Origin: Corallococcus sp. Z5C101001
Lineage (GTDB): Bacteria > Myxococcota > Myxococcia > Myxococcales > Myxococcaceae
Length of the DNA stretch: 64,000 bases
Assembly: GCF_007352635.1 (NCBI RefSeq)
Contig: NZ_VKLU01000005.1
Coordinates: 699,940 to 763,939, forward strand
Direction: 5' to 3'
Part shown: positions 21,324 to 36,710 of the stretch, piece by piece
How positions within the stretch are numbered: position 1 is the first letter of the stretch
How the letters are laid out: every line of letters starts with the position of its first letter
Notes under the pieces: model-generated
Database searches by the model: none
What the model saw: only the letters and a program-made list of their open reading frames with translations
What the model was told of the DNA's origin: nothing
Program-made: the position numbers and the translations under genes

Positions 21324-21423
21324 GTCAGAAGCCGTCCCTAGCATCCGCTACTGTCTTCGGAAAGCCGGAGCAGTCGCGGCCTGTTCGCCGGCCGCGCCAA
21401 CGGAATTCCGGAGGGTGGGTGGC

Positions 21424-21831
21424 ATGGGCACTCGGAGCGTGACGGCGGCCTTGTGCGTCTCCCTGCTCTTCGCAGGGGGGGCGGCGTTCTGCTACACGCG
21501 CGCCGAGACCCTCCAGGCGGAGGGCCGCTGGCTGATGGCCCGGGGCAGCGCCCAGGCCAGCGACTTCGCCCAGAAGCTGGACGGCACCTCCGTGGACGCC
21601 CAGCTGAAGACCTTCAAGGAACGGCGCGGCGTGATGGAGCAGGCCCACCGCTGGCAGCGCGGCATGCTGCTGGGCATCATGGCCGCCGTCCTGTCCGCCC
21701 TGTCCGCGTACGTCCTCTTCCTGCTCAAGCGGCTGGACGACCAGCTGCTGGACGCCACGGGAGAGCTGCGCCGTCCCCAGGAAGCCGCCTCCCTGTCCGC
21801 TCCGGCGTTCACGCCCAGCGTCCAGCGCTGA
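21424..21831 (+). CDS. Hypothetical membrane protein (two predicted TM segments)
   Basis: ATG at 21424; hydrophobic stretches AALCVSLLFAGGAAF and LLGIMAAVLSALSAYVLFLL; no motif recognised. Confidence 0.45.
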   Translation: MGTRSVTAALCVSLLFAGGAAFCYTRAETLQAEGRWLMARGSAQASDFAQKLDGTSVDAQLKTFKERRGVMEQAHRWQRGMLLGIMAAVLSALSAYVLFLLKRLDDQLLDATGELRRPQEAASLSAPAFTPSVQR

Positions 21832-21911: not shown

Positions 21912-22199
21912 ATGCCCGGCTGCGCGCACTGCGGACGCACGCTCGACATCATCGCCAACCAGGTGGGCCGGCGCGACACGTGCCCCGGCTGCGACGAGGA
22001 CCTGCGCTCGTGCCGCAACTGCCGGCACTTCGACGAGTCCGTGGCCAAGGCCTGCAAGGAGCCCTTCGCGGAGGTCCCCCGCGACAAGGACGAGGCCAAC
22101 TTCTGCGAGCTCTTCCAGCTGGGCGAAGGCGGCCTGCACGTGAAGGACTCGCGCGACGCGCTGCTCAGCGCCGCGGAGTCCCTCTTCGGCAAGAAGTAG
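21912..22199 (+). CDS. Small Cys-rich (zinc-ribbon-like) hypothetical protein, 95 aa
   Basis: GGAGG RBS 6 nt before ATG; paired CxxC motifs (CAHCG, CPGCD, CRNC); the ORF-track start at 21453 is an extension. Confidence 0.55.
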   Translation: MPGCAHCGRTLDIIANQVGRRDTCPGCDEDLRSCRNCRHFDESVAKACKEPFAEVPRDKDEANFCELFQLGEGGLHVKDSRDALLSAAESLFGKK

Positions 22200-23339
22200 C
22201 TAGAAGCCGTACAGCTTGGAGATGATCTCCTTCATCACCTCGGAGGTGCCACCGCCGATGGTGATGAGCCGCACGTCGCGCCACATGCGCGCGATGGGCG
22301 TCTCCTCGATGTAGCCCATGCCGCCGAACATCTGCTGGCAGTCGTAGGCCACGCGCTGGGCCAGATCCCCGGCGAACAGCTTCGCCATGGAGATCTCCTT
22401 CACCGGGTTCTCCTTCCGGTCGTAGAGGTCCACCGCGTGGTAGGTGAGCCACCGCGCCGCCTCCACCGCGGACAGGTGCTCCACGAACTTGTGGCGCCAC
22501 ACCTGGAACTTCATCAGCGGCCTGCCGAACGCCTCGCGCTCGTTGCCGTACTGGATGGCGTCCTCCAGCATCCGGTCCATCCCCCCCACCGTGGTGATGG
22601 CCCCCACCAGGCGCTCGCCCTGGAAGTTGGTCATGATGTGGTAGAAGCCCTGGTTCTCCTCGCCCAGCACGTAGCGCGCGGGGATGCGGCAGTCCTCAAA
22701 GTAGAGGATGGCCGTGTCGGACGACAGGTTGCCCACCTTGTCCAGCTTCTTGGAGACGCTGAACCCCTTCACATCCGTGGGGAACGTCACCAGCGACACG
22801 CCGCCGTAGCCCTGCTCACCGGTGCGCACCGCCAGCGTGATGAAGTCCGCGCGCGTGCCGTTGGTGATCCACATCTTGGAGCCGTTGATGACGTAGTCGT
22901 CACCGTCCCGGCGGGCGGTCGTCTTGATGCTCGCCACGTCCGAGCCGCACCCCGGCTCGCTCACGCCCAGCGCCGCGATGCGCTCGCCCTTGAGCGCCGG
23001 CTCCAGGAACTCGCGCTTCTGCTCGTCGGTGCCGATCTCGTTGATGATGGGCGTGGCCATCTGGCTCTGCACCAGCAGCGCCATGTTCACGCCCGCGTTG
23101 CGGCTGCGGCTGAGCTCCTCCGCGAACGCCGTCACGTACCAGTAGTCCAGGCCGCTGCCGCCGTACTTCGGGTCGTGGTTGATGCCCAGAAAGCCCAGCT
23201 CGCCGCACTTCTTGAACAGCTCCCGCGGGAAGATGCCCGCGCGATCCCACTCCAGCCCGTACGGCGCCATCTCCTTCTCCACGAAGGTGCGCACCGTCCT
23301 GCGAAAGGCCTCATGCTCGTCGGTGAACGGGTTGAGCAT
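22200..23339 (-). CDS. Acyl-CoA dehydrogenase
   Basis: Full ACAD architecture including GxGSD motif region ([18 protein letters not shown]), catalytic C-terminal helices ([21 protein letters not shown]); 379 aa. Confidence 0.9.
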
Positions 23340-23371: not shown

Positions 23372-23387
23372 TTGATTTTCAAATCAA
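23372..23387. promoter_or_regulatory. 16-bp palindrome TTGATTTTCAAATCAA about 35 bp upstream of acyl-CoA dehydrogenase start; putative operator, same arms as site at 36257
   Basis: Perfect 7-2-7 inverted repeat read directly in divergent intergenic region. Confidence 0.45.
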
Positions 23388-23557
23388 TAACAGGCGCTCC
23401 CGGTCAGCCACAAGCAACGCCCCCCGTCACTCCGCCGCGCGACGCGGACCGTCATGGTGACGCATCGCGCCGCCCTGGGTGTTAGGGAGCCGGACGGCAG
23501 CCAGGCAGGCCTCCGGGGCTCCCCGAGAGTGGATAGTCCGCACTCCGGAGTATCCTC

Positions 23558-23585
23558 TTGACAGATAATCGAGTGTCGGTAATTT
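23558..23585 (+). promoter_or_regulatory. Sigma-70-like promoter (TTGACA-N16-TAATTT) for the RND efflux operon
   Basis: Perfect -35 hexamer, 16-nt spacer, A/T-rich -10-like hexamer in a local GC dip about 80 bp upstream of the MFP gene. Confidence 0.35.
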
Positions 23586-23660: not shown

Positions 23661-24761
23661 GTGAATCAGCGAATCTTGGCTGCCGTGGTGGCCGTGGCGG
23701 TGTCGACGGCGGGGTGCTCGCAGGCGGGCGCGGGGAAGGCGCAGTTGCCGGCGCAGCAGGAAGGCTCCAACGCGCTGGGCGTCAAGGCCATCACTCCGGC
23801 CACGGAGCTGGAGCAGAACGTGACCCGGGTCACCGGGCAGGTGCGCTCCAAGCAGGAGGCCGTCCTGGGTCCCCAGGTCACCGGCACGCTCGCGAAGGTG
23901 AACGTGCGGGTGGGTGACAAGGTGAAGAAGGGCGACGTGCTGGCGGTGCTGGACACGTCCAACGTGAGCATCGCGGTGGACCAGGCGAAGGCGGCCCGGG
24001 ACATGGCGGAGGCCTCGCTGCAGCTGGCGACGAGCAACCTGGAGCGCACGCGCAAGGTGGCGGAGTCCGGCGGCGTCGCGGCCAACGCGCTGGAGCAGGC
24101 GGAGATCGGCCAGAAGCAGGCCGCGGCCCAGGCGGCCCAGGCGGGCGCGGCGTACCGGCTGGCGGCGGAGAACCTGCGCGACCACTCCATCCTGGCGCCC
24201 TTCAACGGCGTCATCACGGCGCGCACGAAGAACGTGGGCGACTCCGTGGCGGTGACGCCCTCCACGCCGGTGTTCTCCATCGTGGACACGGAGGGGCTGG
24301 AGGTCCGGATGATGGTGCCGGAGTCCGTCATCGACAACGTGGCGCCGGGCACCGTGACGCCGGGCATCGTGAACCCCAGCGGCATGCGCTTCGAGGCGAA
24401 GGTGGCCAACGTGGGCGCTGTCATCGACGCGCAGAGCCGCACGGTGGAGGTGCTGGCGGACGTGACGGGCACGACGGAGCGCCCGCTGCGCCCGGGCGCG
24501 CTCGTGGAGATGGACTTCTCCAAGGCCGCGGGCGACGCCGGCAACGGCCTGTTCCTGCCCGCCCAGGCGGTCAGCAGCAAGGGCCAGGAAGGCTTCGTGT
24601 GGGTGGTGCAGGACGGCACCGTGCGCAAGCGCGACGTGCGCGTGCAGCGCGTGCTGCCGGGCTACGTGAAGGTGCTGCAGGGCCTGACGGCGGAGGAGCG
24701 TGTGCTCGCCGACGCGTCGCTGGACGTCAAGGACGGGACCGCCGTGCGCGTGGCGCAGTAA
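23661..24761 (+). CDS. RND efflux periplasmic adaptor (membrane fusion protein, HlyD/AcrA family)
   Basis: Lipoprotein-type signal (AVAVSTAGCSQ), coiled-coil hairpin, beta-barrel and MP domains typical of MFPs; 366 aa. Confidence 0.9.
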   Translation: MNQRILAAVVAVAVSTAGCSQAGAGKAQLPAQQEGSNALGVKAITPATELEQNVTRVTGQVRSKQEAVLGPQVTGTLAKVNVRVGDKVKKGDVLAVLDTSNVSIAVDQAKAARDMAEASLQLATSNLERTRKVAESGGVAANALEQAEIGQKQAAAQAAQAGAAYRLAAENLRDHSILAPFNGVITARTKNVGDSVAVTPSTPVFSIVDTEGLEVRMMVPESVIDNVAPGTVTPGIVNPSGMRFEAKVANVGAVIDAQSRTVEVLADVTGTTERPLRPGALVEMDFSKAAGDAGNGLFLPAQAVSSKGQEGFVWVVQDGTVRKRDVRVQRVLPGYVKVLQGLTAEERVLADASLDVKDGTAVRVAQ

Positions 24762-24800: not shown

Positions 24801-27952
<3,152 letters not shown>

Positions 27953-27953
<1 letters not shown>

Positions 27954-28516
27954 TGCGCCGCCCGACCTCCATCACTCCGCCCCCGGAGCTCGACACGCGC
28001 TCCGAGGGGCAGGACGAGGCCGCCGATGGGCTGTCTCCGATGGAGCGGCTGATCCAGGAAGGCGACCGGTCCACGCCGGACTCTCGCCGCTTCATCGCCC
28101 TCATCAAGGAGCTGGCCTACTTCCGCTCCTTGAGGGATCCGCTGGCGAGCCTCTGCGACGACATGCGGCTCACCCCCACCCAGGTGCACGCGCTGGGGTG
28201 GCTGGGCATGGATGGCCCCACCCAGGTGGGGGTGCTGGCCCAGCGCATCGGCATCACCAAGAAGACCATCACCGGGGTGGTGGACCGCCTGGAGGACATG
28301 GGCATGGTGGAGCGCGGCCGGGACGCGGAGGACCGCCGCGCCGTCACCGCGAAGCTCACCCACAAGGGCTGTGAGCTCTATCAGGCCATCCAGTTGATGA
28401 CGGACTCCGGCATCCGGCGCCTGATGGACCTCTTGCCCTCCGAGGACCGCGAGTCGCTGTTCGGCATCATCGAACGGATGATTTCACGGATGAAGGCCGC
28501 CGCCTCGGCGCGCTGA
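27953..28516 (+). CDS. MarR-family transcriptional regulator, translationally coupled (ATGA) to the RND pump gene
   Basis: wHTH region LTPTQVHALGWLGMDGPTQVGVLAQRIGITKKTITGVVDRLEDMGMVER; 187 aa. Confidence 0.85.
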
Positions 28517-28569
28517 ATCCGTCCGGACAGGTGCGTGGACGGGCGCGGGCTGCGACACTGCCCGCGCCC

Positions 28570-29673
28570 ATGCTCCCCTCCTTCCTGGCCCTGCTCGGGC
28601 TTGGCCTGAGCGCCACTCCCCCACCCGCCCCGTCCGCGCCCGACCTCCTGCGCGCGCAGTGCCGCACGCACGCCGCGGATCCGCGCCACCCCTGGGCGCT
28701 CGCGCACGGCATGGACCTGGACGGGAAGGCCTTCCGCGCCCGTGACGGCCGCCCCGCCGCGGACGCCATCGTCGCGGGGTTCCTGCACCGCGAGGCCCCG
28801 GACGCGGGGGGCGCCCCGCCGCGCTTCTACTTCGACGCGTTCACCGCGGAGGGCACGCCCGTGGAGCCACACCCGGCGCTCCAGGTGAAGACCTTCGTGC
28901 TCGCGGGCTACCCGCTCACGCACGCGTTCCCCGCGCCCTGGGGCCCGGTGACGCTGCGCGACCTGGTGGCGTCACTCCAGCGCGACTTCCGCCCCGCCCT
29001 GGCGTCCTCGCCGGAGGGAGCCTGGGCGCTGGACGCGCTGTCACACGTGCTCAAGCCCGGGGCCTCGTTCGTCAACGGCGCGGGAGAGACCGTGCGCATC
29101 GACGCGGTGATGGACACCGCGCTCGGCACGCTGGAGGCCGCGCAGGCGGAGCTGGCCCGGGGGATGAAGGCGGGCCTTCCGGAGGTGCCCAAGAACAAGC
29201 AGGGCATCTACGCGCACCCGTGTGGAGGGCTCCACTTCTTCCAGGCCGTCGCGGGTTGGGCGCGCTTCCCCCAGGTCCGCAAGGCGTGGGGCGCGCGGCT
29301 GGATGCGCAGGTGGACGTGCTGGTGTACCGGCTGGGTTCGGAGACGCGGCAGTACGAGGCCGCGCTCGCCGCCGCCCCCGCGTACCGCATCCCCGTGCTG
29401 GTGCAGATGGTGAAGTTCCACGGGCACTTCCTGGAGGCGCTCGGGCGCTACCGGGACGAGGCAGGCTGGAAGCCCACGCCCGGGCAGGCCCGCGCGGTGG
29501 AAGCGGCCCGTGCGGCCCTGGAGCGCGCCACCCTCCTGCTGGAGGCCACCGGCGCCTTCCGCGACACCGCGACGCTGGCTCGGACGCAGCCCCAGCTCGC
29601 CCTGGACCTGGTGGGGGACGCGTGCCACGCGGCGCGCGGCTGGGACCTGTGGGGGGCCCCGCCGGCGAGGTGA
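28570..29673 (+). CDS. Hypothetical secreted protein
   Basis: Signal peptide MLPSFLALLGLGLSATPPPAPSA; no recognised domain; start alternatives at 28531 or 28570. Confidence 0.45.
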   Translation: MLPSFLALLGLGLSATPPPAPSAPDLLRAQCRTHAADPRHPWALAHGMDLDGKAFRARDGRPAADAIVAGFLHREAPDAGGAPPRFYFDAFTAEGTPVEPHPALQVKTFVLAGYPLTHAFPAPWGPVTLRDLVASLQRDFRPALASSPEGAWALDALSHVLKPGASFVNGAGETVRIDAVMDTALGTLEAAQAELARGMKAGLPEVPKNKQGIYAHPCGGLHFFQAVAGWARFPQVRKAWGARLDAQVDVLVYRLGSETRQYEAALAAAPAYRIPVLVQMVKFHGHFLEALGRYRDEAGWKPTPGQARAVEAARAALERATLLLEATGAFRDTATLARTQPQLALDLVGDACHAARGWDLWGAPPAR

Positions 29674-29683
29674 AGCGCGGACG

Positions 29684-31435
<1,752 letters not shown>

Positions 31436-31459
31436 GTGGACTTCCCTCCTCGTCAACCT

Positions 31460-32380
31460 TCAGGGCGCGGACGCCACCTGGCGCATCCACGCGAGCACCC
31501 GGGGCAGCACCTCGCGGCGGGCGCGCTCCCCGCGCACCACGTCGAAGTGGCCCGCGTCCCAGCTCAGTCCCTGCGCACGGCCCAGGACGGCCAGCACCTT
31601 CTTCCCACCGCCCAGGTGCTCCACCAGCTTCTGGGCGCGCCGGGGCGAGGCATGGAACCCATCCGCCGCGCCCACGCCCGCGAACACCGGCAGCGTCACC
31701 TTCCCCAGCGCGCCCCAGTAGTCCGTCGCGCCATCCGCGCTGCGGAACGCTCCGGTGGGCGCCCAGTTGGTGAACTGCCGCATCACGCCCGGGGGCTCGT
31801 CCCAGGGGCCCTGCTTCAGGGCCTTCGCCGGGAAGCGGCCCAGCAGCCCCGCCACCGCGGTGGAGAACCCCAACTGGAAGCGCTTCTTGAGCCCGCCGTC
31901 GCTGTAGTCATTCACCGCCGAGGACAGCGTGCACACGCCGGCCAGCATCGCCTGGGCCTCCAGGTCCAGCCCCAGCGCCGCCAGCACCGCGTAGCCGGCC
32001 ATGCTGTGGGCCAACAAGAACAGCGGTCCCGAGTGGCGCGCGCGCACGGCCCGCACCAGGTCCGGCACGTCGTGGCGCACGTAGGTGTCGAAGTTCCAAT
32101 CGAACGCGCGCTTCTGGGGCCAGCGGCTCTTGCCGTGCCCGCGCAGCGACGCGACGTACGCCGTGCAGCCCTCGTCCACGAAGGAGCGCGCCGGCCCGTC
32201 GCCCTGCCCTCCCAGGAAGAAGCGCCCGTCGGAGAACAGTCCCGGGACGAAGAGGATGCCGGGCGTGGAGGCAGGGGCCGCGGCCAGGCTCGCCTCCACG
32301 ACGTGCAGCGCGTGGCCCCCCGACGTGGGCACCCAGAAGTCCTCCATCAGGGCGGCGTCGGGCTTCGTGTTCGTGCTCAT
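31460..32380 (-). CDS. Alpha/beta-fold hydrolase
   Basis: Nucleophile elbow AHSMAGY, catalytic His near C-terminus; 306 aa; 4-bp overlap with upstream thioesterase gene. Confidence 0.75.
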   Translation of the reverse strand: MSTNTKPDAALMEDFWVPTSGGHALHVVEASLAAAPASTPGILFVPGLFSDGRFFLGGQGDGPARSFVDEGCTAYVASLRGHGKSRWPQKRAFDWNFDTYVRHDVPDLVRAVRARHSGPLFLLAHSMAGYAVLAALGLDLEAQAMLAGVCTLSSAVNDYSDGGLKKRFQLGFSTAVAGLLGRFPAKALKQGPWDEPPGVMRQFTNWAPTGAFRSADGATDYWGALGKVTLPVFAGVGAADGFHASPRRAQKLVEHLGGGKKVLAVLGRAQGLSWDAGHFDVVRGERARREVLPRVLAWMRQVASAP

Positions 32381-32823
32381 GGACGAGACTCCTCCGAGGG
32401 GACCACGGGGCCGCCCGCGGCGGCGAGGAACTGCTGGAGCGACGCGAGCGAGCGCGTCCGCGCATCCAGGAACGCCACGCTCACCACCGCCTCCACCGCC
32501 AGGGGCCCGTCCCCGGAGAGGAACACGCGCTGGCGGAACCGGGCGCGGTAGTTCAGCCCCTCCACGTCCAGTTCGTCCTCGGCGGGCGACTCCAGCACCG
32601 TGTGCACCCGCACGTCGCCCGGGGGAATCTCGCGGCGGTAGTCCACCTCCACGCGCGACACCACCGCCACCACCGCGGCGCCGCGCTTCAGCCCCTGCCG
32701 CTCCAGCCAGGCCCAGCGGCCGGCCTCCAGGTACTCCAGCACGGTGGCGTTGTTCACATGGCCCAGCGTGTCCAGGTCGTTGGGCCGCACGCGCAGCGTG
32801 AGCGAGGACTCTTCGAAGTGCAC
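32377..32823 (-). CDS. Hotdog-fold acyl-CoA/acyl-ACP thioesterase (4HBT/YbgC-like)
   Basis: LRVRPNDLDTLGHVNNATVLEYLE signature of 4HBT thioesterases; 148 aa. Confidence 0.75.
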   Translation of the reverse strand: MHFEESSLTLRVRPNDLDTLGHVNNATVLEYLEAGRWAWLERQGLKRGAAVVAVVSRVEVDYRREIPPGDVRVHTVLESPAEDELDVEGLNYRARFRQRVFLSGDGPLAVEAVVSVAFLDARTRSLASLQQFLAAAGGPVVPSEESRP

Positions 32824-32862
32824 GGGGATGTCCTTCTGGCCGCGGGGGGAACCACGGCGACT

Positions 32863-33234
32863 TCAGGGAGACGGAGCGCGCGTCACGAGGACCACCGTCG
32901 AGACGAACCCTCCGCTGTGGGACAGCGACACGGCGACCTGCCAACCCTCGCGCGAGAGGCGCTCCGCGAGCGCGCCGTGGAACTGGAAGCGTGGCGCGTG
33001 CCGGGCATCGTGGACGAGCTCGGCGTCCGTCCAGAACCAGTCCTCCATGGCGGGCAGCGCCTTGAAGAGCGCCTCCTTGGCGCTGAAGCCCGCCGCCAGG
33101 CTCTGCTTCGGGGACGCGGAGTGCTCGAAGTAGGCGAGCTCCGCGGCCGTGAAGAAGACGTCCGGCTCCAGCAGGGACCGTGCATCCTCCAGCTCCGAGA
33201 TGGCCTGGAGGTCATGGCCCAGGCCCATCAGCAC
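32863..33234 (-). CDS. 4'-phosphopantetheinyl transferase (AcpS-type holo-ACP synthase)
   Basis: GxGxDL motif (MGLGHDLQAI), FSAKEALFKAL motif; 123 aa. Confidence 0.75.
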   Translation of the reverse strand: MLMGLGHDLQAISELEDARSLLEPDVFFTAAELAYFEHSASPKQSLAAGFSAKEALFKALPAMEDWFWTDAELVHDARHAPRFQFHGALAERLSREGWQVAVSLSHSGGFVSTVVLVTRAPSP

Positions 33235-34193
33235 CCGACGAGGTCCATCCAGGTGTCTTCGACGCTTTCACGCGACGTCACGGTGATGCCGGTGATGCGC
33301 TTGAGCGCGTGGAAGATGAGCTGCTCCTTCTTGCGCAGCGACTCCGGGACCTCGAAGCCGTCGCGGTGCTCCAGCTGATCCCACCAGTTGACGTGGGTGT
33401 CGCGAGACTCCACCCGCTCGCGCTTGCTGCCATGCACCTCTCCGCCGTCGCGCAGGAACAGGTGCGCCACCGCGAACGCCTCCTTCGCCTGATAGCCACC
33501 GCTGTCCACCAGCGCCTTGGCGAAGGCGATGAAGTAGTTCATGTGCTGGATTTCGTCCGCGGCCACCTGCTTGAACAGCGCGCGCAGCCCCGGATCCTCG
33601 ACGCGCTGCGAGCACTGGCCGTAGTCCACCGCCGCCACGACCTCCGAGATGGCCAGCAGCGTGAGCGTGCGCAGCATGTCGTCGTCGGGGAAGACCTTGC
33701 GGAACTCGATGAAGGTGGCGTCCGTGATGGGCTCCAGCCGCATCACCGTGGACAGGCGGTTGAACGCCGTCTCGTGGTGCGCCTCCTCCTCGTTCCAGTA
33801 GCGGCTCCACGTGCCGCACGCCTGCATGATGGCGGCGACCGTGGGGTCCTTCTCCTGCCAGCGGCGGCACTCCGCGTCCGCCAGGCGCTCCAGCCGGTCA
33901 GCGCCTGGCTTCGTCGTCAGCTCCGCCCGCCCGGCGTTCCACACGAGGTGCCGGTCGGCTTCTCCCAGGCGCTCGAAGTCCACCGCCGCCAGCATCTCCA
34001 TCACGCTCCAGCGCCGCGACTCGTGCAGCCGCTGCTGCTCCCACGCCAGGTCCACCAGCGACAGCCCCCGTTGCGTGATGGCCTCGTACAACTCCGCCAT
34101 GATCGCTGGACGGCCCTCCTGCTCCTGCGCGCCCGGAGTGCTGCTGGGCCCGTCCTCCAAGTCCTGCTCGAGGCTTCCCGCCTGGATGCTCAT
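33228..34193 (-). CDS. Soluble ferritin-like diiron acyl-ACP desaturase-like protein
   Basis: Two EExxH-type diiron motifs (WNEEEAHHETAF; AADEIQHMNYF) spaced as in stearoyl-ACP desaturase/DesA-type enzymes; 321 aa. Confidence 0.6.
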   Translation of the reverse strand: MSIQAGSLEQDLEDGPSSTPGAQEQEGRPAIMAELYEAITQRGLSLVDLAWEQQRLHESRRWSVMEMLAAVDFERLGEADRHLVWNAGRAELTTKPGADRLERLADAECRRWQEKDPTVAAIMQACGTWSRYWNEEEAHHETAFNRLSTVMRLEPITDATFIEFRKVFPDDDMLRTLTLLAISEVVAAVDYGQCSQRVEDPGLRALFKQVAADEIQHMNYFIAFAKALVDSGGYQAKEAFAVAHLFLRDGGEVHGSKRERVESRDTHVNWWDQLEHRDGFEVPESLRKKEQLIFHALKRITGITVTSRESVEDTWMDLVGC

Positions 34194-34486
34194 GCCGACT
34201 GTCGCCCCGGGTTCGAGACCTCGGCCATGAACACCTCCAGCACCTTTGATACCGGTGTATCAAGTGACAAGGCAGGCAGTCGCACTCGCAGTCCATACTC
34301 CTTGCGCAACCCGTTGGAGGTGCGGGCAAAGGCTTCCATCAGATCGACGCTGTTGGTCATGCGCTCCGAGCGGGTGATGAGGGCCGCGAGCGTCAGGTCG
34401 TCGGAGAACAACTCCGCCACTGACAAACCCACGTTTTCTGCGAATTTCTGTCGGATATAGGACTCGAGCTCCTGCGCGTCGGGCAC
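34190..34486 (-). CDS. Stand-alone acyl carrier protein-like protein (about 98 aa)
   Basis: GTG start with GGAAGG RBS; ACP-like helix II region TNSVDLMEAF with candidate phosphopantetheine Ser; the longer ORF-track version (to 34618) overlaps a promoter-like region. Confidence 0.45.
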   Translation of the reverse strand: MPDAQELESYIRQKFAENVGLSVAELFSDDLTLAALITRSERMTNSVDLMEAFARTSNGLRKEYGLRVRLPALSLDTPVSKVLEVFMAEVSNPGRQSA

Positions 34487-34542
34487 GGGGGACCTTCCTT
34501 CCCAGGGCTTGAAAGTCGTTTTCCCAGTCAGAAACCAGGAAA

Positions 34543-34570
34543 GATCTAACTGTCGCTCCTGAACTGTCAA
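34543..34570 (-). promoter_or_regulatory. Sigma-70-like promoter (TTGACA-N16-TAGATC) upstream of the ACP-desaturase-PPTase-thioesterase-hydrolase(-FAAL) gene string
   Basis: Read on minus strand in a GC-poor gap between CoA-transferase stop and ACP start. Confidence 0.25.
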
Positions 34571-34633: not shown

Positions 34634-35812
34634 TCATGCAATGAGACGCGAGATTTCCTCGGCTGTGAAACCTGCTTCTTCCAGGATGACGCGGGTGTGT
34701 TGTCCCAGCGCGGGCGGTGGACGCAGTGCGACGTCGCCCATGCGCAGCGGCGTGAGCAGGTGCGTAACACGGATGCCGCGCTGCGCATCGTCCGCGTCCA
34801 CGAAGAGGCCCCGCGCGCGCAGCTGCGAGTCCGACAACACGTCGTCGCCCTCCGCCACCGGCTCCACGCACAGCTCCGCGCCAGCGAGCCGTTCGCGCCA
34901 GTGCGCCATCGGCTCGCTCGCGAAGATGCGGGTGAGCTCTGACTTCACGCGAGCCCCCGCTTCACCGCCCGTGTATGCGTCATCCAGCAGCTCCGGGCGG
35001 CCCAGCCGGGCGCAGAGCGCGCCGAAGAACTTGGGCTCCAGCGCTCCCACGGCGAGCCAGCGATCATCCGCGGTGCGGTACAGGCCGTAGCTGGGGTAGC
35101 CGCCGTTGAGGGGCTCGCTGCCGCGGGCAAGCGGCGTCCCCGCCTCGCCAGTGAACAGGCGAGCGGCCAGGTGCAGGTGGAGGAACGCGAGCGCGCCGTC
35201 CGTCATGGAGACATCCACGAAGCGGCCCACGCCGGTGCGCGCGCGCTCGTGCAGCGCGGCGAGGATGCCCACCAGCGCGAAGAGGCTGCCACCGCCGATG
35301 TCCGCCACCTGGACGCCCGGGAACGCGGGCGCGCCGCCCGCCTCGCCGCCGTAGCCCAACAGCCCCGCGCGGGCCACGTAGTTGAGGTCGTGCCCCGCCT
35401 TGAGCCGGTCCGGCCCTGTCTGCCCATAGCCGGAGATGGCGCAGTAGATGAGCCGCGGGTTCCTGCGCCGCAGCACCGCTTCGCCCACGCCCAGCTTGTC
35501 CATCACGCCGGGACGGAAGCTCTCCACCAGCACGTCGTAGCCGTCCACGAGGCGCAGGAGCGCCTCGCGTCCCTCCGGCGTCTTCAGGTTGAGCGTGAGC
35601 GAGCGCTTGTTGCGGTGCAGTCCGTAGAAGAGCGCGCCCTCGCCGTCGCGGTGCGGCGGCATGTGCCGGGTGGCGTCCCCCACGTCCGGGTCCTCCACCT
35701 TGTCGACGGTGGCACCCAGGTCCGCCAGCACCAGCGTCGCGTACGGGCCGGGCAGCAGCCGCGACAGGTCCAACACCCGCAGGCCGGCGAGAGGAGAGGA
35801 CGGCTCGGACAT
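34634..35812 (-). CDS. Family III CoA-transferase (CaiB/BaiF/alpha-methylacyl-CoA racemase family)
   Basis: LAGLRVLDLSRLLPGPYATLVLADLGA N-terminus, catalytic Asp region (DVSMTDG); start at MSEPSSPLAG. Confidence 0.85.
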   Translation of the reverse strand: MSEPSSPLAGLRVLDLSRLLPGPYATLVLADLGATVDKVEDPDVGDATRHMPPHRDGEGALFYGLHRNKRSLTLNLKTPEGREALLRLVDGYDVLVESFRPGVMDKLGVGEAVLRRRNPRLIYCAISGYGQTGPDRLKAGHDLNYVARAGLLGYGGEAGGAPAFPGVQVADIGGGSLFALVGILAALHERARTGVGRFVDVSMTDGALAFLHLHLAARLFTGEAGTPLARGSEPLNGGYPSYGLYRTADDRWLAVGALEPKFFGALCARLGRPELLDDAYTGGEAGARVKSELTRIFASEPMAHWRERLAGAELCVEPVAEGDDVLSDSQLRARGLFVDADDAQRGIRVTHLLTPLRMGDVALRPPPALGQHTRVILEEAGFTAEEISRLIA

Positions 35813-35850
35813 GGAAGGGGACTCCAGGGGGAGGGGCACGACATGACGAC

Positions 35851-35905: not shown

Positions 35906-36235
35906 TCAGCCGAGCAGCTTCGCCAGCTTCATGGCGAGGCCCATGTCCATCGGCTTGAACTTCAGCTTGCCCTGCATGGCGGCCATCTGCGCGTTCAGCT
36001 TCTTCTCCGTGATCTTCACGAAGTCGTCGTTGCTGACGGTGACCGTCATCTTGGACGCGCCGTTGATGCCCTCGGACACCCAGCCCTCGGTCTTCGTGGT
36101 GTCCAGCGTCCACTTGCCGCCGCCCTCACCCGAGACGTCGAAATGGATGACGGCGTTGATCTCCTTCGCCAGCTCCGGCTTCGCCTGCAGCCGGTTGGGG
36201 ATCTCCGTCTCGATGATGTCCTTCGCGGTCGCCAT
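35906..36235 (-). CDS. SCP2 (sterol carrier protein 2) domain lipid-binding protein
   Basis: Characteristic SCP2 C-terminal GKLKFKPMDMGLAMKLAKLL; 109 aa. Confidence 0.8.
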   Translation of the reverse strand: MATAKDIIETEIPNRLQAKPELAKEINAVIHFDVSGEGGGKWTLDTTKTEGWVSEGINGASKMTVTVSNDDFVKITEKKLNAQMAAMQGKLKFKPMDMGLAMKLAKLLG

Positions 36236-36256: not shown

Positions 36257-36272
36257 TTGATTGGTGAATCAA
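36257..36272. promoter_or_regulatory. 16-bp palindrome TTGATTGGTGAATCAA about 20 bp upstream of SCP2 start; same TTGATT/AATCAA arms as site at 23372
   Basis: 6-4-6 perfect inverted repeat read directly. Confidence 0.45.
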
Positions 36273-36332
36273 GCCCGCGCGGACCGTAATGGCGCCCCTC
36301 CGCCGGGTCAAGGGTGGGCCGAGGCGCTGTCC

Positions 36333-36710
36333 TCAGACGCGCGACGTGTCCACCGAAGGGCCCAGGGAGTGTCGCACCATCGACAGCAGATCGTTGAGCT
36401 CGAAGGGCTTGGCCAGATGGCCCACCGCGCCAATGTCCTTGGCCTTGCTGCCGACGTTGCGGTCCGCGCTGAGGACGATGAGCGGGATGCTCGCGACGGA
36501 CGGCTGCTTCTGTCGCATGCGCTGGGCGAACTCCCAGCCGTCCATCACCGGCATCATCAGGTCCAGCAGGATGAGGTGGGGAGGATCCGGCTCCAGCCGC
36601 TCCAGGGCCTCCTTGCCGTTGCGCGCACGGCGGATCTCGAAGCCCTCGGCCTCGAGGATCTCCGAAAGGGCTTCCAGGATGTCGGGATCATCGTCCACGA
36701 CGAGAACCAC
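36333..36710 (-). CDS. Single-domain response regulator (CheY-like receiver)
   Basis: VLVVDDDPD, phospho-acceptor D in LILLDLMMP, T/S (LSAD), K (AKPF); GTG start; upstream in-frame TGA confirms no longer N-terminus. Confidence 0.8.
   Translation of the reverse strand: MVLVVDDDPDILEALSEILEAEGFEIRRARNGKEALERLEPDPPHLILLDLMMPVMDGWEFAQRMRQKQPSVASIPLIVLSADRNVGSKAKDIGAVGHLAKPFELNDLLSMVRHSLGPSVDTSRV

Follow-up and report, generated by a model that had tools for sequence, protein, structure and literature searches.

Two genes for lipid metabolism in Corallococcus sp. Z5C101001, one encoding an acyl-CoA dehydrogenase (ACAD) and the other an SCP2 lipid-carrier domain protein, are each preceded by a 16-bp palindrome with the same two arms. 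This raises the question of whether the palindromes are binding sites of a single regulator and, if so, what kind of regulator this might be and which functions it brings together. The analysis concerns a window of 64 kb (the whole stretch of DNA considered, about 70% G+C) and related loci from other myxobacteria.

Two palindromes and their surroundings

The pattern TTGATT-N4-AATCAA (written in full as TTGATTNNNNAATCAA) has two exact matches in the window. That at 23372-23387 reads TTGATTTTCAAATCAA and that at 36257-36272 reads TTGATTGGTGAATCAA. No match was obtained in 100 dinucleotide-preserving shuffles of the window and, when up to two mismatches were permitted, no additional site was found in the 64 kb (0.13 expected). 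An earlier note on this DNA had described equal-armed palindromes of 16 bp located about 35 and about 20 bp upstream of two lipid genes. The description holds, with exactly two copies present where practically none is expected and measured distances of 32 nt to the ACAD ATG and 21 nt to the SCP2 ATG. The features relevant to the analysis are the following.

22200-23339, minus strand: ACAD, target gene 1 (Pfam Acyl-CoA_dh N, M and C domains)
23372-23387, no strand assigned: putative operator 1, overlapping the putative -10 element of the ACAD promoter
23384-23413, minus strand: putative ACAD promoter, TTGTGG (-35), 18 nt, TGT-TATTGA (extended -10), inferred from conservation
23661-24761, plus strand: membrane-fusion protein (MFP), divergent from the ACAD gene
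24801-27953, plus strand: AcrB-type RND pump
27953-28516, plus strand: MarR-family regulator
28531-29673, plus strand: 380-aa protein of unknown function
29684-34486, minus strand: FAAL, alpha/beta-hydrolase, 4HBT thioesterase, PPTase, di-iron-like protein and a small ACP-like gene
34516-34531, no strand assigned: possible degenerate third site, CTGACTGGGAAAACGA on the minus strand, conserved within Corallococcus only
34634-35839, minus strand: CoA-transferase family III protein, second gene of target operon 2 (Pfam CoA_transf_3, E 1e-106)
35906-36235, minus strand: SCP2 lipid-carrier domain protein, first gene of target operon 2 (Pfam SCP2, E 9.5e-18)
36257-36272, no strand assigned: putative operator 2, beginning 10 nt downstream of the putative -10 element of the SCP2 promoter
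36283-36311, minus strand: putative SCP2 promoter, TTGACC (-35), 17 nt, TACGGT (-10), from conservation in every genus examined
36333-36710, minus strand: receiver-only response regulator beside SCP2

The ACAD is 84-96% identical across the Cystobacterineae. Its JGI name is citronellyl-CoA dehydrogenase, and its closest solved structures are mycobacterial ACADs and the human long-chain ACAD. For the SCP2 protein there is a Corallococcus entry with 100% identity. Among PDB structures, the CoA-transferase family III protein best matches M. tuberculosis MCR (1x74) and further alpha-methylacyl-CoA racemases (E about 6e-63), the group of enzymes that it resembles most.

Several neighbouring genes showed features of their own. 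Near the ACAD gene are a membrane protein of about 140 aa (21421-21831, plus strand) and a 95-aa Cys-rich protein (21912-22199, plus strand) with four CxxC pairs and a weak double-zinc-ribbon match; in Corallococcus, M. xanthus and Hyalangium both are located between the ACAD and FtsJ methyltransferase genes. In the FAAL region, the longest open reading frame of the alpha/beta-hydrolase (31460-32944, minus strand) overlaps the 4HBT thioesterase gene (32377-32823) on the same strand. Because the Pfam match begins at residue 230, the true start of the hydrolase is probably near 32370.

Conservation of the sites and their position relative to putative promoters

Twelve orthologous Corallococcus loci were retrieved for comparison and, outside this genus, the species compared were M. 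xanthus, Hyalangium minutum, Stigmatella aurantiaca, Archangium gephyra and Melittangium boletus. Both sites occur at orthologous positions in the 12 Corallococcus loci. The ACAD site is at the same position in Corallococcus spp., M. xanthus, Hyalangium, Stigmatella and the metagenomic loci L020 and L021, and the SCP2 site is present in the 12 Corallococcus loci, M. xanthus, Hyalangium, Stigmatella, Archangium, Melittangium and L020. In the phylogenetic footprinting proposed in the earlier note, the sites are thus kept at orthologous promoters of related myxobacteria. A search of the window together with related Cystobacterineae loci (422,539 bases) gave 29 exact matches to TTGAYT-N4-ARTCAA, where base composition predicts 0.004, and every one of them is at one of the two orthologous promoters.

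In the Corallococcus loci, the SCP2 site reads TTGATTCACCAATCAA, with CTGATT instead in two species, and the ACAD site reads TTGAYTCGCGARTCAA, in which the arms are the same but the spacer is CGCG as against TGAA in the window (gene strand). The consensus TTGAYT-N4-ARTCAA was derived from 16 distinct versions of the site. Eight of the 12 arm positions are invariant among these versions, conservation reaches at least 90% at positions 1 and 16, and positions 5 and 12 vary only by transitions (T/C and A/G). There is a preference for A before and T after the site, giving the extended form ATTGAYT...ARTCAAT. The spacers appear unconstrained, both at ACAD (TGAA, CGCG, TAAG, GGAA, TGGG, CCAG) and at SCP2 (CACC, TTCA, CTGA, CAGT, CCTG), and in the alignments both site blocks stand out against divergent intergenic sequence. 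The suggestion that ACAD and SCP2 share the site of one dimeric regulator is thus borne out insofar as the sites are conserved in at least six genera, with invariant arm positions and a free spacer.

A metagenome scan of 80 ACAD loci included about 75 more distant paralogues (36-53% identity, other phyla), and no such site was found at these, so that the motif is lineage-specific. The ACAD locus of Cystobacter fuscus (CP043491.1, L015 9949-12619) has no operator. The ACAD orthologue there is 85% identical, the usual neighbours are gone as well, and a DDE transposase gene is located directly downstream, which suggests a local rearrangement. The M. xanthus SCP2 site (L014 1851-1866, TTGATTTTCAAATCAA) is identical to the plus-strand 16-mer of the ACAD site in the window, spacer included; since spacers vary freely elsewhere, this is probably a coincidence. 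Searches of an incomplete body of literature returned no published description of the motif string or its variants and nothing relevant for Myxococcus combined with TetR/ACAD or with SCP2/racemase.

The position of the sites relative to neighbouring conserved blocks is informative. In every genus examined, TTGACC, TACGGT and the operator are the only conserved blocks of the SCP2 intergenic region, all else being divergent, and the site always follows the putative -10 element TACGGT by about 10-12 nt. This would place the SCP2 operator at roughly +4 to +19 of the putative promoter. Upstream of the ACAD gene, a block GCTTGTKS-N17/18-CTGYTATTGAYT is kept in four genera. The last four bases of the putative extended -10 element (TGnTATTGA) are the first four of the operator, and the site always overlaps the conserved block CTGYTATTGA, 20-48 nt from the start codon. 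A simple sigma-70 consensus scanner called no promoter in the ACAD or SCP2 upstream regions; it missed that of SCP2 because TACGGT fits the consensus at only three of six positions. Both promoters are therefore assigned solely by conservation.

Both operator positions would be typical of a repressor rather than an activator, and an activator or dual-function regulator may be considered as an alternative at the ACAD promoter. Taken with the conservation described above, the palindromes appear to be real conserved binding sites of one regulator which most likely shuts off the ACAD gene and the SCP2 operon. The inferred parts of this explanation are repression as opposed to activation, the ligand and the regulator family.

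Candidate regulators and alternative explanations

The window contains no TetR, MerR, GntR or CRP-type gene, and no regulator gene is found beside either target in about 25 related loci. The search for a nearby regulator gene, which was equally negative, covered the window, the 12 Corallococcus loci, M. xanthus, Hyalangium, Stigmatella, Archangium, Melittangium, Cystobacter and the 80 metagenomic ACAD loci. Among gene products close to the targets, the response regulator next to SCP2 was rejected as a binder, being limited to a receiver domain, as were the Cys-rich and membrane proteins beside ACAD, neither of which has a DNA-binding domain. CdbA was also rejected, its motif being a GC-rich direct repeat.

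One resemblance is to the boxes of the CRP/FNR family, a member of which would have a global role here, by activation or repression. Both outer pentamers, TTGAT and ATCAA, correspond exactly to the half-sites of the canonical FNR box (TTGAT-N4-ATCAA), and unusual spacing is known for myxobacterial CRP-family factors such as MrpC. However, the spacing is TTGAT-N6-ATCAA, wider by 2 bp, which turns one half-site about 70 degrees further round the helix relative to the other: the FNR/CRP frame is TGA-N6-TCA (including TGTGA-N6-TCACA), whereas TGA-N8-TCA is found in every version of the sites. None of the 16 versions departs from T and A at the sixth arm base, although FNR and CRP boxes do not demand a fixed base at this position. 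The SCP2 site lies downstream of a conserved -10 element and not at -41.5 or -61.5, and the two sites, each at a lipid gene, are the only ones in the 64 kb. A CRP/FNR-type regulator is consequently improbable. A MerR-type operator, such as that of LiuR, would have its dyad between -35 and -10 elements with a spacer of 19-20 bp. At SCP2 the inferred -35 and -10 elements are 17 bp apart with the dyad downstream of the -10, and at ACAD there is no -10-like hexamer 19 bp after TTGAYT; this type was rejected for both sites.

The earlier note had pointed to the local MarR-family protein (27953-28516), which by binding both palindromes would join ACAD, the SCP2 cluster and possibly the RND pump in one regulon. 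No other classical DNA-binding regulator is encoded in the window. MarR dimers bind palindromes of 16-20 bp and in NCBIfam this protein comes closest, although weakly, to the fatty-acid regulator FabT (41 bits, where the cut-off is 200). Its distribution is nevertheless narrower than that of the sites. The protein has 40 homologue clusters at E<=1e-15 in a word-seeded search, which could miss very divergent orthologues, and those with a name are from Corallococcus, Myxococcus or Pyxidicoccus, with the exception of one Comamonas-labelled assembly. The sites, in contrast, are retained in Stigmatella, Hyalangium, Archangium, Melittangium and L020, where such homologues were not found. In Hyalangium and Stigmatella, the ACAD site is located in a gap of 75-81 bp beside the orthologue of the 380-aa protein (64% identity), with no MFP-RND-MarR genes at the locus, and a MarR-like gene near the Stigmatella ACAD is unrelated (E = 1). 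The Comamonas-labelled match is a close homologue (P0273, 'Comamonas sp. JC664'); as every other named match is from the Myxococcaceae, the assembly is probably misassigned or contaminated.

The MFP-RND-MarR operon has, moreover, a promoter of its own (TTGACA-16-TAATTT, 23558-23585) with a perfect -35 element at 23558-23563. The ACAD site is situated about 170 bp upstream of this element and does not overlap the promoter. A different palindrome of the form GGATAGTCCG-N5-CGGAGTATCC, with cactc at its centre in the window (23531-23555), directly abuts the -35 element. It is kept in all the Corallococcus loci and in M. xanthus, with variation confined to the centre, and in Myxococcus and Corallococcus it is found together with the MarR gene. 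It is probably the MarR protein's own operator, for which it seems a more natural candidate than the 16-mers. Inclusion of the RND pump in the regulon is accordingly not upheld, and the MarR protein itself is very unlikely to be the regulator.

A protein-independent role, in which the palindromes would fold into hairpins as RNA or DNA, such as a stem-loop in the 5' UTR with an effect on translation or mRNA stability, is still less credible. The SCP2 palindrome is probably within the 5' UTR and could form a 6-bp stem with a 4-nt loop, but such an A/U-only stem is weak and the ACAD element, which overlaps the likely -10, would be partly untranscribed. Fold z-scores of +0.67 and -1.18 are unexceptional. 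Pair 5/12, the only variable one, is U-A in seven versions, U-G in three, C-G in two and a C-A mismatch in four (n = 16), no better than in shuffled controls. There are thus neither compensatory changes nor stability above background, and the lack of covariation implies that the half-sites drift independently, as if each monomer accepts either pyrimidine. Finally, chance similarity or a short dispersed repeat without function, which has the small copy number in the window as the sole point in its favour, is effectively refuted, given that approximately no copies are expected, that the position is kept across genera while flanks and spacer diverge, and that the flanks of the two copies have no mutual similarity, so that they are not a mobile repeat.

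For the preferred reading, a regulator encoded elsewhere in the genome that binds both sites, the best guess is an acyl-CoA-responsive repressor of the TetR type, a tentative assignment to which we give slightly less than an even chance. It is suggested by the TTGA-N8-TCAA frame, 2 bp wider than that of FNR/CRP, which is the geometry of the operators of the TetR-family proteins RutR (PMC2475637), SmcR (PMC2859563) and BetI (PMC7058928). In the sites analysed here, T2 G3 A4 and T13 C14 A15 are present in all 16 versions, with the TTGA and TCAA tetrads 8 bp apart. No open reading frame with a TetR_N domain, and so no adjacent or divergent cognate gene, is present in the window or in the flanks of the related loci. 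This counts against the assignment since TetR-type repressors usually adjoin their targets and regulate themselves.

The RutR operator of E. coli, 5'-TTGACCAnnTGGTCAA-3', is a perfect 16-bp palindrome, likewise with outer TTGA...TCAA tetrads 8 bp apart, and RutR is a homodimeric repressor of a catabolic pathway which is released by a small metabolite: it senses uracil and thymine and controls pyrimidine catabolism (PMC2475637). Its inner bases are ACCA/TGGT, in contrast to YT-N4-AR, and no RutR-like gene was found near the sites. The BetI operator, as present in the BetI gate promoter AATTGATTGGACGTTCAATATAATG (PMC7058928), resembles the sites in having an identical left arm (TTGATT), a 4-bp spacer, the TTGA-N8-TCAA frame and the flanking A...T of the extended consensus. 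Its right arm is GTTCAA rather than ARTCAA, and BetI, which controls choline oxidation, is encoded in the operon that it regulates.

Within the myxobacteria, AibR of Myxococcus xanthus is an acyl-CoA-responsive TetR-family regulator which needs its ligand for DNA binding and whose gene lies in its own operon (PMC5389471). Like the sites described here, for which an acyl-CoA ligand is presumed, its operator is palindromic and located at promoters of acyl-CoA metabolism, and AibR shows that regulation of this kind exists in these bacteria. Unlike in the AibR system, no regulator gene is linked to the targets. AibR itself was rejected as the binder, its operator ACCTACCG-N2-CGGTAGGT being unrelated in sequence. 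The same logic is known from FadR of Bacillus and Thermus, PsrA and KstR, which are acyl-CoA-responsive lipid regulators of the TetR family. By analogy with these systems, the arrangement would be of the classical repressor-operator type represented by RutR and BetI, with the logic of AibR, FadR, PsrA and KstR, and would leave current concepts unchallenged.

A predicted module for acyl-CoA catabolism

The two targets are linked by the metagenome scan, among whose 80 ACAD loci three were informative. In L020 (4368-7140; ACAD 79% identical, 72% G+C), which is from a more distant lineage, the SCP2, CoA-transferase and ACAD genes are contiguous. One site (TTGATTCCTGAATCAC) follows TTGACG-17-TACGGT ahead of SCP2, and after the stop codon of the CoA-transferase gene there is a second (TTGACTCCAGAATCAA), located before the ACAD start. 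What look like two 'separate' genes in the window thus belong to a single module. In L023 (1-1780), the CoA-transferase and ACAD genes are 28 bp apart and the internal site is absent, while the L022 contig starts within the site. The Corallococcus SCP2 operon is separated from ACAD by about 13 kb that contains the FAAL cluster, the gene of the unknown protein and RND-MarR, an organization which suggests insertions into an older three-gene SCP2/CoA-transferase/ACAD cluster.

The beta-oxidation of 2-methyl-branched acyl-CoAs in peroxisomes and mycobacteria involves SCP2/SCPx, AMACR/MCR and a branched-chain acyl-CoA oxidase or dehydrogenase. The targets described here would correspond to this set, having, as judged from sequence, an SCP2 domain, an MCR-like CoA-transferase family III protein and an ACAD of the long-chain type. 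In contrast to the peroxisomal and mycobacterial set, the SCP2 is a stand-alone protein of 109 aa with no thiolase fusion.

The 'lipid-tailoring cluster' extending from the ACP-like gene to the FAAL gene, which had also been assigned to the regulon, does not fit this module. It has its own promoter, is absent from M. xanthus and is replaced by a PKS in Archangium and Melittangium; its promoter and patchy occurrence indicate that it is not a core target. A degenerate match to the operator (34516-34531) lies downstream of this promoter (TTGACA-16-TAGATC, 34543-34570, conserved), ahead of the ACP-like gene. The match is better (TTGACTGTGGAATCGA) in the group of C. praedator, C. sicarius and C. 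llansteffanensis and is absent in Hyalangium, and it is a weak candidate for a third operator.

Two proteins encoded in the cluster merit description. The 98-aa carrier-protein-like reading frame (34190-34486, minus strand), which heads the genes for the di-iron protein, PPTase, 4HBT thioesterase, alpha/beta-hydrolase and FAAL, gave no match in Pfam, but contains an NSVDLME motif that resembles the serine site of ACPs. The 321-aa protein (33228-34193, minus strand) carries two EXXH-type motifs and weakly matches acyl-ACP desaturase/rubrerythrin proteins (PDB 1za0, E 0.002; Pfam FA_desaturase_2, E 0.003), and within the FAAL/ACP cluster it may serve as a di-iron enzyme of lipid modification.

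Overall, we consider it likely that the two palindromes are operators of one repressor of a catabolic module for long-chain or 2-methyl-branched acyl-CoAs. In the proposed mechanism, a single homodimeric helix-turn-helix repressor encoded elsewhere in the genome would bind both operators, recognizing (A)TTGAYT-N4-ARTCAA(T) with half-site centres 10 bp apart. Once bound, it would occupy the -10/start region of the ACAD promoter and roughly +4 to +19 at the SCP2 promoter, and the ACAD and SCP2 genes would thereby be held off jointly. The signal for release would most likely be an acyl-CoA or fatty-acid ligand, and the products made upon release, the SCP2 carrier, the racemase-like enzyme and the ACAD, would together form one catabolic module for such acyl-CoAs.

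These results define a precise conserved cis-element and group three poorly annotated genes (SCP2, racemase-like and ACAD) as one myxobacterial module. They also correct two tempting misassignments, those of the neighbouring MarR protein and of the RND pump, and provide a bait sequence for finding the missing regulator. A wider proposal, possible but appreciably more speculative than the operator reading, is that the motif is recognized by an uncharacterized Cystobacterineae-wide repressor, encoded away from its targets and sensing branched or long-chain acyl-CoA, which controls a bacterial counterpart of the peroxisomal 2-methyl-branched beta-oxidation module. If this were true, the regulon could exceed the two promoters found. 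Branched-chain lipid metabolism in myxobacteria matters for development and for natural-product supply, and such a repressor could tie the module to the turnover of the iso-branched lipids that these bacteria use as developmental signals.
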